Virus record (IMG/VR): IMGVR_UViG_2877948078_000003
Direction: 5' to 3' (one strand)
DNA: 64,000 nt
From: a virus
Lineage: Duplodnaviria; Heunggongvirae; Uroviricota; Caudoviricetes
The notes beneath the pieces are model-generated. The model searched no databases and had not been told where the DNA came from. It saw nothing but the letters and a program-made list of their open reading frames with translations. Position 1 is the stretch's first letter, and each line of letters starts with the position of its first letter. A program made the translations under genes and the position numbers. Positions 60,485 to 62,996 of this stretch are shown here, in pieces.

Positions 60485-61344
60485 TGTTTCATGTTGATAA
60501 TAATTCCGGCGTGGCGAATATGCCTGCGCTGGCACCGGCGCAGAGTAATACCACCGCCTGGTTTACCGAAGGTGACGGACAAAAAGGTATCAGCTGGATT
60601 GGTCAGGACTGGCTGAATATTCTCCAGGCCGAACTGCTGAATATTCTGGCTGAAGCCAGTATTCAGCCGGATAAGGCGCAGTTAAACCAGCTTACGCTGT
60701 CTATTAAAGCCATTATCGCTGCGAATGCTTTTTCCCGGAAAAATAACCTGAAAGAAATTGCTGATGCCGGTGCGGATGCTCAGCGTCTGGCCCGTGGTTA
60801 TCTTGGTCTGGGGACGCTTGCCACAAAAAACAGTCTTGGTCCCGGTGACGTTAATGCCCTGGCGAAGGTTCAGAATCTCGCCGACCTGGAGAATAAGGGA
60901 ACCGCCCGTAATAATCTGGATGTTTACAGCAAGAGCGAAGGTGATAACCGTTACCTGCGCAGGGAGCAGCACGGCGCAGACATTCCGAATAAAGGGGCTT
61001 TTATCGATAACCTCGGTTTACGGGATACGGTAAACAGGGCTGCGAATGCCCTGCCATCAAACGGTACGGCTGTTGCAGCAAGCAGGCTGGCAAATACCCG
61101 CAGAATCAATGGTGTCGCCTTTGACGGGACGCAGGATATAAACATCACATCCGGCATAACTCAGAGGGATGCTGATGCCCGATATGTTCAGAACGTAATG
61201 CTGGGTGCAAGTGCGCGGACAGAGACAACAGCACCAGCTGGATGTGTTGTAACATTTGTGGATGGTGGCAGTAAAATGGAGTTTATAATGTATAAGCCTG
61301 TTCAAATATATATCGGGGGAGCATGGAGAACAATCTCTGGCTGA
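60484..61344 (+). CDS. Tail fibre protein; C-terminal tip lies inside the invertible segment
   Basis: ATG overlaps the upstream stop (TAATG); C-terminus paralogous to the minus-strand alternative tip. Confidence 0.75.
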
Positions 61345-61430
61345 TTTTTATTTATTCTGCGAAGCATCAGTAATACCCGCAGACAAAAAAATATATCATC
61401 GGCGGGGTTTATATAAAATACAGGTGAAAA

Positions 61431-61952
61431 ATGGAACTAATCAACGTTAAGCGATATAACCCGGAACACAAACCCTATGGTGAGAATGTTCAGTATTTCC
61501 AGAGTGAGGACGGAAGGGATTTTTATGAATCTATCCCGCTTTTCACAAAGAAATACAAACTCTGTATTTCGCCTGTAACGGGTATTATCTGCTCTGTTGC
61601 TGAAGATGTCTCTGCTTTATATCCGGCAGGTTTTACTGTTGTTGAAGTGGACGAACTGCCGGAAGGTGTGAATATTGACGGTAACTGGCAGTTTTCTGAT
61701 GGCCTGATATCAAAGGTGCCGGTAAACTGGAAGACGGTTGCTGAAAATCGCCGCTCATCGCTGCTCCAGGAGGCCAACGGAACCGTGGATGACTGGAAAA
61801 CAGAATTAAAACTGGACATGATTAGCGATGAAAATAAATTAAAGCTGACGCGCTGGATGGCGTATATCCGACAGCTTAAAGAAATGCACTTTAATGATAT
61901 TGCCAGTGAGGGGCATTACCAGGCGATTCCCTGGCCGGAAAAACCGGAATAA
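61431..61952 (+). CDS. Tail fibre assembly chaperone
   Basis: 173 aa immediately after the fibre gene, inside the invertible segment. Confidence 0.7.
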   Translation: MELINVKRYNPEHKPYGENVQYFQSEDGRDFYESIPLFTKKYKLCISPVTGIICSVAEDVSALYPAGFTVVEVDELPEGVNIDGNWQFSDGLISKVPVNWKTVAENRRSSLLQEANGTVDDWKTELKLDMISDENKLKLTRWMAYIRQLKEMHFNDIASEGHYQAIPWPEKPE

Positions 61953-61986
61953 TTCAGAGGGTGCATTCAGCACCCTTTTCTGTGGT

Positions 61987-62300
61987 TTACACTGAACTCA
62001 CCGTTCTCCAGGCATTATTAATATAAATCTGAACCGGGCGATAATAGACCCCACCGATATTATCCGCAGACCGGGAGCCGGTATCCTGTACATGAATACC
62101 GGAAAGCATACAACCTGCTGGTGTTTTATAATCCCAGGTGACTTCATTACCCGCAGGAGAGTGGCGGCTCTGAGCACCAAGTTGCACATTACGAACATAT
62201 CTGCCGTCTGCTGTAGCCTGGGTCATACCGGATGTAATAGTGATGTCTTTTGTGCCATCGAACGCAACACCATTAATTTTACGTGCCGCAGACAGCTTGT
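61987..62300 (-). CDS. Alternative tail-fibre C-terminal tip (promoterless, used after inversion)
   Basis: Minus-strand frame open from the right inverted repeat; product paralogous to the plus-strand fibre tip (ADGRYVRNV..PVQIYI..AWRT). Confidence 0.55.
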
Positions 62301-62435
62301 TTGCCGCTACGGCTGTACCATTCGATGGCAGGGCATTTGCAGCCCTGTTTACCGTTTCCCGTAAACCGAGGTTTCAGGGATGCCGTATATCTGCTTTAAA
62401 AGGCCTTTCCACCTCTTTTTAAGGAAGGTAAATAC

Positions 62436-62996
62436 ATGCTGATTGGCTATATACGCGTATCAACAAATGACCAGAACACAGGTTTACAAAGAAATGCGCT
62501 GGAATGTGCAGGATGTGAGCAGATTTTTGAAGATAAAATGAGCGGAAACACAACGCAGCGACCGGGACTGAAGCGGGCACTGAAGAAACTAAAACCCGGT
62601 GACACACTGATGGTCTGGAAACTGGACAGGCTGGGGCGCAGTATGCGCCACCTTGTTGCGCTGACAGATGAATTACAGCAACAGGGGATAAATTTTCGTA
62701 GTCTTACTGACAACATTGATACGTCAACCCCCATGGGGCGCTTCTTTTTTCACATAATGGGTGCGCTGGCAGAAATGGAGCGTGAATTAATTGTCGAACG
62801 GACACGGGCTGGTCTTGCAGCTGCCCGTGAAAGGGGACGAACCGGCGGCAGACCCCGCCGTCTCACGCAGGAACAATACGAGCAGGTTGGGCGTTTACTG
62901 GCCGGGGGTGTCAGTCGAAGACAGGTGGCACTTATTTTTGATATCGGCCTTTCAACCCTTTATCGTTATTATCCTGCGAGCGTTTCGGAAAAATAA
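62436..62996 (+). CDS. gin: Serine DNA invertase (Gin/Pin/Hin family)
   Basis: MLIGYIRVSTNDQNTGLQRNAL and C-terminal HTH are hallmark resolvase/invertase features; AAGGAAGG SD. Confidence 0.9.
   Translation: MLIGYIRVSTNDQNTGLQRNALECAGCEQIFEDKMSGNTTQRPGLKRALKKLKPGDTLMVWKLDRLGRSMRHLVALTDELQQQGINFRSLTDNIDTSTPMGRFFFHIMGALAEMERELIVERTRAGLAAARERGRTGGRPRRLTQEQYEQVGRLLAGGVSRRQVALIFDIGLSTLYRYYPASVSEK

Follow-up and report, generated by a model that had tools for sequence, protein, structure and literature searches.

Invertible tail-fibre segments are a textbook host-range switch of phages, and the textbook design gives each fibre tip its own chaperone. In the C segment of phage P1, served by Cin, and in the Min system of p15B, the tail fibre has its C-terminal parts swapped by a switch of the serine-invertase kind. 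Phage Mu, Mu_3F6, the Yersinia phage vB_YpM_44 and the e14 element each carry a pair of chaperone genes in close coupling with the fibre parts. The Mu-like prophage Sp18 of Escherichia coli O157:H7 Sakai was judged to be intact and its DNA to be packaged (Asadulghani et al. 2009, PMC2669165), and its invertible region has already been mentioned (PMC2669165); we found no published comment on its single chaperone gene or on its orientation bias. Here we analyze the tail-fibre locus in a 64,000-nucleotide stretch of DNA (the window) from a virus of the Caudoviricetes, record IMGVR_UViG_2877948078_000003. Over this region, DNA identity is 92-99% with Mu-like prophages of Shiga-toxin-producing E. 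coli, O157:H7 among them, and with Mu-like insertions in two Shiga-toxin (Stx) phages; the locus belongs to a complete Mu-like prophage with the late-operon context intact. Judged by sequence comparison, the element is an Sp18-type Mu-like prophage of Shiga-toxin E. coli, and the locus appears to be a working Gin-type host-range switch, a shortened Mu G segment, in which a single tail-fibre assembly (chaperone) gene, tfa, accompanies two alternative fibre tips.

The invertible segment measures 1355 bp from core dinucleotide to core dinucleotide, and is bounded by two 26-bp crossover sites, a gixL-like site on the left (61001..61026, TTATCGATAACC TC GGTTTACGGGAT, central dinucleotide at 61013-61014) and a gixR-like site on the right (62356..62381, TTCCCGTAAACC GA GGTTTCAGGGAT, central dinucleotide at 62368-62369). 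As is typical of the sites used by the Gin/Hin/Cin/Pin invertases, the two are inverted relative to each other and have imperfect 12-bp half-sites around an identical 2-bp core (TC/GA); both align with Mu gixL and gixR at almost every base, the TC core included. A near-perfect inverted repeat, far above chance, pairs 48 of 50 bases between its left arm (61009..61058) and its right arm (62324..62373, read from 62373 to 62324), and the 16-mer core CCCGTAAACCGAGGTT occurs in exactly two copies in the 64-kb window, inverted relative to each other, where 0.04 would be expected. A preliminary description made from the sequence had placed arms of about 47 nt at 61009-61055 and 62300-62346; the left arm was correctly located, and the right one was off by about 27 nt, the true 47-nt partner being 62327-62373. 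Weaker homology (73%) continues inward beyond the near-perfect repeat to 61208 on one side and 62174 on the other, about 200 nt. That the repeat extends solely inward of the core is to be expected, because the inner homology is the conserved start of both variable coding parts. Between the crossover sites lie, in order, the tip Sv, an 86-nt leader, tfa, a terminator hairpin and the opposed tip S'v, with the invertase gene next; this gene content, read from the list of open reading frames (ORFs) and Pfam, is the one first proposed. In the O157-type left site (loci L003, L006, L007, L014 and L015), the outer half-site has AACG rather than AACC beside the core, and elements with this site occur in both orientations.

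In the state seen in the window, the whole fibre gene (Sc+Sv) occupies 60484-61344 on the + strand in the ORF list. Its constant N-terminal part, Sc (60484..61014, +, 177 codons), lies outside the invertible segment and was recognized by its match to the N-terminus of Mu S, residues 1-199 of the fibre matching Mu S 1-192 (PDB 5yvq_A, E 3.5e-47). The crossover falls at the same protein position as in Mu (NLGL-x-E/D-TVNRA; the Mu sequence there is FIQNLGLQETVNRA). The variable C-terminal tip now joined to Sc is Sv (61015..61344, +, 109 codons and a stop), as delimited from the ORF list and the alignment with Mu S and S'. The alternative C-terminal tip, S'v (61987..62367 on the - strand, 126 codons and a stop in the ORF list), is silent in this state and has no chaperone gene after it. 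The two tips are thus 109 and 126 residues long, while their Mu counterparts have about 335 and 320; the difference lies in the shaft portion, which is absent here, essentially the distal domain alone being left. Although pairwise similarity is weak, the tips align with Mu S 435-501 and with the C-terminal domain of S', and together with those of relatives and the C-termini of Mu S and S' they form one family, of the same fold as the receptor-binding domains of Mu S and S', with the framework RY(V/I)xx(V/I)xLG ... G(C/N)V(L/I)TG ... YYRPVQxxINGxW. The protein has both the baseplate-docking N-terminal region and the S/S'-type C-terminal domain of a Mu S-type fibre, and the gene is split as in a Mu G-type switch, with the constant N-terminus outside the segment and two opposed C-terminal parts inside it, each in frame after inversion. 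The start of Sc overlaps the stop of the upstream gp48/YmfQ gene (TAATG; Phage_Mu_Gp48 in Pfam), and translation of the fibre is coupled to that of the baseplate genes. Exactly the same fibre protein is encoded in E. coli CP031892.1.

A virtual inversion of the segment puts S'v in frame with Sc, giving a fibre of 303 residues (177 + 126), and the same ORF is annotated in natural genomes of the inverted state. We searched for the predicted flipped junction (Sc + S'v, 600 nt) in 5426 complete E. coli genomes. E. coli 89-3156 contains all 600 nt of it at 100% identity, and about a dozen further genomes match it at 96-97%. The preliminary description had predicted that inversion would join the alternative tip to the constant part and leave tfa antisense, and this is what the inverted-state genomes display, tfa being annotated in them on the strand opposite to the fibre gene. 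Two pairs of related loci differ in the orientation of the segment and of nothing else, the break points falling at the gix sites. L003 and L007 share 98.8% identity in the flank upstream and 99.5% within the segment; for L002 and L004 the figures are 97-98% and 99.0%, respectively. Moreover, a polymorphism lies 4 nt inside the inner half-site (GGGA-T/A-AC), and when forward and inverted genomes are compared, the variant base has moved to the other side together with the segment. The exchange is therefore placed at the gix core; on the same ground we rejected general homologous recombination in the longer repeat as the source of the two states. From this comparison between genomes, inversion evidently takes place.

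The enzyme for this reaction would be the product of the gene directly downstream of the segment (62436..62996, +), an intact serine DNA invertase of the Gin/Pin family with 186 residues. It combines a Resolvase-type domain carrying the N-terminal catalytic serine (PF00239, E 4e-51) with a C-terminal HTH_7 domain (PF02796, E 2e-14), as members of this family do; it is 76% identical to Mu Gin over 181 residues, in keeping with the Gin-like invertase first noted at this place, and its catalytic-serine motif is intact (MLIGY-RVSTNDQ). With the gix sites, the intact invertase gene and the natural flipped junction, the idea of a Gin-type invertible fibre tip with one chaperone has found support; a single orientation or an inactive invertase gene had been named as evidence that would speak against it, and two orientations are seen across genomes and the gene is intact. 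From gixR to a point ~180 nt into the invertase gene, the DNA is 83% identical to that of Mu, where the corresponding stretch contains a Fis-dependent enhancer, which Kahmann and colleagues reportedly located in the 5' part of gin in 1985. From the homology to gin, such an enhancer would be expected in the 5' part of the gene here as well. In E. coli 89-3156 the invertase is frameshifted (L004 5793-6352), and this copy is therefore probably locked in the S'v state. In E. coli 2014C-3011 (L007) the prophage is a truncated remnant beside an integrase and dusA, with the segment still intact and in the inverted state.

The sole tfa gene (61431..61952, +) encodes a protein of 173 residues that belongs to the Caudo_TAP family (PF02413, E 8.9e-18; 65 bits, the cut-off being 22). 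The protein also matches Mu U (PDB 5yvq_B, E 4.9e-16), and its identity with U and U' is about 32%. We found no second tfa in the window or downstream to com/mom, either in the called gene list or by tblastn with seven Tfa proteins (the window's Tfa, Mu U and U', e14 TfaP and TfaE, and two Tfa of Citrobacter braakii); the lone chaperone gene, pointed out earlier as a departure from the Mu G segment with its two genes U and U', is thus real. A weak tblastn match at 36897-37148 was discarded as an additional tfa, being a helix-turn-helix (HTH) protein. We also rejected an antisense gene within tfa that might act as U': the window has a 98-aa antisense ORF, but 5-12 stops interrupt it in divergent loci. 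Apart from the constraint that the tfa frame imposes, its frames show none, and since the antisense frames are closed in those loci, no antisense gene is hidden there. More distant Tfa homologues sit in non-invertible Mu-like prophages. The paired chaperones of a Mu G-type switch are missing throughout the 11 loci that we parsed (six forward and five inverted), each of which has one tfa.

The rest of the layout is equally constant, since all 11 loci have an Sv of 109-121 residues, a leader of 51-121 nt, a tfa of 173 codons, a 31-35-nt spacer with the hairpin, and an S'v of 116-126 residues. All their ORFs are intact in both states, including that of Sc+S'v in 5/5 inverted loci. The loci cover two Tfa subtypes, and synonymous divergence in tfa is saturated. 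On this comparison, the one-chaperone layout appears to be a conserved, old and selected design. The ratio of nonsynonymous to synonymous divergence (dN/dS) is 0.07-0.13 for S'v, at a synonymous divergence (dS) of 0.26-2.5, compared with 0.16-0.19 for tfa and 0.16-0.20 for Sv. Hence selection is seen on both tips, and S'v is evidently under strong purifying selection, at least as strong as that on tfa or Sv, and would not be a relic.

The Sv slot of relatives holds at least five unrelated cassettes of tip plus leader, homology returning 0-9 nt from the tfa start codon. In the window, the last ~60 Sv codons and the leader (61190-61430) form an allele without a match of 95% or more in the complete-genome set, and no match at this level was found for the Sv tip allele among the 5426 genomes. 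It appears from these alignments that Sv tips are swapped together with their leaders as cassettes, while tfa and S'v stay in place.

To count the two states we required a junction covering at least 80% of the query, and scored Sc+S'v as the tfa-antisense state and S'v+invertase as the state of the window. There are 184 genomes with the Sc+S'v junction versus 28 in the window's state, or about 87% of some 212 readable genomes, a figure that is only indicative, as the genomes share ancestry and are not independent samples. The prophage clade is present in about 230 of the 5426 genomes; the S'v-state genomes represent many chromosomal positions and several serotypes, and 15 of the 28 window-state genomes carry the O157-type Sv allele. 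As a Gin-type switch has no intrinsic direction, roughly equal numbers would be expected, and the bias therefore suggests a founder effect or selection in the lysogen; the founder-effect version suggests that the virions that lysogenize E. coli carry S'v fibres. The selection on S'v and the orientation bias together make a dead-end S'v state unlikely, and we infer that the S'v state yields functional fibres. In RefSeq, the intact 313-aa fibre ORF of forward O157-type loci (L001 3031-3972, and L003) is unannotated; only a 67-aa 'tail fiber protein' and a spurious ORF on the opposite strand are called there, and S'v is labelled an incomplete pseudogene, so that the switch is hidden from annotation-based surveys.

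How, then, could fibres with the S'v tip be assembled when tfa is antisense? Probably one chaperone serves two tips in this prophage, which is mostly in the tfa-antisense state, either because tfa is transcribed on its own in both orientations or because one tip of the Mu S/S' fold folds without a chaperone in cis. The account that we favour, tentatively and at rather less than an even chance, is that a shared, generic Tfa is supplied to S'v fibres independently of orientation. The invertase would recombine the two gix sites and flip the 1355-bp segment, and the constant 177-residue stem would be joined either to Sv, with tfa on the same transcript, or to S'v, with tfa antisense. One Tfa, generic for the tip family, would reach the S'v fibres off the late transcript, and the most likely route would be transcription of tfa from the AT-rich leader, which would stop at the terminator directly after tfa and invert together with it.

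The generic nature of Tfa is supported by three observations: the same tip type is found with both Tfa subtypes; the N-terminal half of Tfa, which North and colleagues are said to have identified in 2019 as the fibre-binding domain in Mu, is the conserved half although the tips differ; and the tips share a C-terminal strand motif. The C. braakii locus, where a tip similar to S'v is followed by a lone tfa, also counts for it. As to the route, the untranslated leader (61345..61430, +, 86 nt, ~35% GC, allele-specific) ends in the ribosome-binding site AGGTGA, so that tfa has a strong site of its own. The leader is 51-121 nt long in 11/11 loci and 69 nt in C. braakii. In Mu, Mu_3F6 and vB_YpM_44, which have two chaperones, only 2 nt separate the fibre gene from tfa, and the gap is ~15 nt in relatives that do not invert. 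The stop codons of tfa and S'v face each other across a hairpin (61956..61978) that is predicted to be an intrinsic terminator in the tfa direction: read on the + strand, the stem (-17 kcal/mol, z -3.1) is accompanied by a U-tract, which is lacking on the - strand. The stem is preserved through differing sequences in divergent loci. A leader in every allele, a ribosome-binding site of its own and a one-way terminator fit an independent expression of tfa.

Several results, however, weigh against this route. The preliminary description had asked whether the chaperone gene has its own promoter, and no sigma-70-like site is predicted on the + strand of the leader; promoter-like matches across the region are at chance level (8 found versus 4.9 expected). 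The leaders of different alleles are unrelated in sequence, and the leader does not look like a structured or known RNA, as it has no Rfam match and folds no better than shuffled sequences (z -1.35). When Mu Plys, PI and Pmom were compared with the prophage's own upstream regions, the core of the Mu late promoters (a T-run and TAAAAC) was clean only in the leader of L014/L015, and one of the comparison regions, taken as pre-lys, lay upstream of a GemA homologue. Furthermore, if tfa were transcribed in the S'v state, it would be read against the oncoming late transcripts, which would meet only a hairpin without a U-tract. The shared ancestry of the counted genomes, mentioned above, belongs to the same side.

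The promoter results would be accommodated by another explanation, possible but on balance doubtful, namely that S'v fibres need no Tfa encoded in cis, because they trimerize unaided or borrow a Tfa from one of the numerous other prophages that their hosts carry, and that tfa serves only the exchangeable Sv tips. Heterologous cross-complementation of this kind exists, as lambda Tfa can stand in for T4 gp38. Apart from the failure to find a promoter for tfa, this explanation would suit the linkage of tfa to the Sv side, where the alleles swap along with the leader while S'v is constant, and the fact that S'v is both strongly constrained and the common state. On the other hand, all tips, S'v among them, have a C-terminal framework in common with Mu S and S', which are each served by a Tfa of their own, and the close relative of S'v in C. 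braakii precedes a tfa; besides, a dependence on foreign prophages being induced at the same time would be unreliable.

The history of these segments might suggest instead that the equivalent of U' was simply lost, that the S'v state is non-productive, an 'off' state, and that cells in it release fibre-defective particles. Since Mu, e14, Mu_3F6 and vB_YpM_44 all carry two chaperones, the loss of one is the simplest historical account, and some copies of the element are indeed degraded, as the invertase frameshift in L004 and the remnant L007 illustrate. Nevertheless, we regard a non-productive state as improbable: the dN/dS of 0.07-0.13 in S'v holds over deep divergence, with the tip intact in 11/11 loci; the layout, being old and stable, is no recent deletion; and an S'v share of 87%, spread over many positions and serotypes, is hard to account for if only Sv virions found lysogens.

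A somewhat smaller chance still is given to the view that it is mainly the host for whose sake the segment persists: when it flips in the lysogen, a fibre-derived protein would be made that blocks other phages. There is a precedent in the related e14 segment, where PinQ acts on the P segment (StfE2) and a fibre-derived protein has a role in phage defence (PMC12529663), and this view would explain the 184:28 bias, which otherwise has no explanation. But the element is a complete Mu-like prophage with its late-operon context intact, its fibre is translated in coupling with the baseplate genes, no lysogenic fibre promoter is evident, and Sp18 packages its DNA. Least likely of all is flipping during lytic growth, in which the late transcript would read past the reversed hairpin into the invertase gene, Pin would rise and some copies would turn tfa-sense and supply Tfa in trans: the U-tract of the hairpin in the tfa direction only and the position of the invertase gene, directly downstream and on the strand of the late operon, would allow it, but it is pure inference, Sv subunits would be made in the same cell and hence mixed fibres, and to our knowledge no such supply of Tfa by flipping in lytic growth is known for Mu.

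The gene directly after that of the invertase, at 63100-64000 of the window and cut by the window end, encodes a protein of 680 residues in which a SASA (sialate O-acetylesterase) domain and DUF6645 are recognized; the genes after it are DUF1378, DUF826, com and mom in this order (cf. L017 8613-10655). In related Mu-like prophages without an invertase, the slot of the SASA protein is occupied by a long lambda-Stf-like fibre and a DUF4376 chaperone, and the SASA protein may therefore be a second receptor-directed tail protein or esterase cargo. Farther upstream, the window ORF 38177-38686 is a GemA homologue and no endolysin. Two sequences, LC727881.1 and LC727895.1, are annotated as Stx1a- and Stx2c-converting phages with an inserted Mu-like phage of the Sp18 type; such insertions imply that the element transposes into other prophages.

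These transposable prophages, which form a widespread clade in Shiga-toxin-producing E. coli, thus have one chaperone for two or more tip types. Understanding how they do so would tell whether Tfa is generic for the tip fold or dispensable for some tips, and either answer would bear on the engineering of delivery particles based on P2, Mu and P1, whose fibres are to be swapped. Predictions of host range would benefit too, for Mu-like phages that spread within and among pathogenic E. coli, those inserted in Stx phages included. If one chaperone does serve two tips, paired chaperones are not required by invertible fibre switches, and either outcome would provide a natural system in which the features that make a tip dependent on Tfa could be defined.

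Among the known systems, Sp18 of O157:H7 Sakai is the same type of element, with 92-94% DNA identity across the region and an identical layout, and differs in that the window has another Sv tip allele and leader. The G segment of Mu with its Gin invertase shares with our locus the order baseplate, fibre, invertase, com and mom, near-identical gix sites, and the same families of tips and Tfa, but it is 3.06 kb long compared with 1.36 kb here, and has two tfa genes (S/U and S'/U') and a 2-nt gap where our locus has one tfa and an 86-nt leader. The P segment of e14 (stfP-tfaP / tfaE-stfE), inverted by PinE, also has short fibres after a Baseplate_J/YmfQ module and a Pin invertase directly downstream; its invertible segment is about 1.8 kb, and it differs in its two chaperone genes, which are arranged back to back and tightly coupled to the fibre genes. 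P1 and p15B have far larger segments, in which the inverted repeats are long or the sites multiple and the chaperone genes are paired; P1-type Tfa proteins, in two copies per genome, were among the tblastn matches. One more locus with a single chaperone gene belongs to a Mu-like prophage of C. braakii ATCC 51113 (L008), and was the only useful one found in a survey of one-genome-per-species contigs with the constant fibre part. Its Sc is 72% identical, and it has a gix-bounded segment with two opposed tips, one tfa, a 69-nt leader and a hairpin between the convergent genes (L008 7428-7464), which is perfectly symmetrical. It differs in that its fibre is longer (472 residues), its Tfa is of another type (229 residues, with a DUF4376-like C-terminus), its lone tfa follows the tip resembling the window's S'v (TPAGCML-S/T-GI.VQDTGS.SADNIGGVYY), the other tip being without tfa, and it has three gix-like sites (L008 6819-6852, 8841-8857 and 9190-9223), and may be a multiple-inversion system.

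Taken by its sequence relationships, therefore, our locus appears to be a homologue of the Mu G segment by function and descent, without the paired, co-oriented chaperones of the classical G, P and C segments. The switch itself was already known, and had even been noted for Sp18; what is new is the single chaperone as a conserved, selected design, the chaperone-less tip that is usually in the expression position, and the exchange of Sv together with its leader as a cassette.

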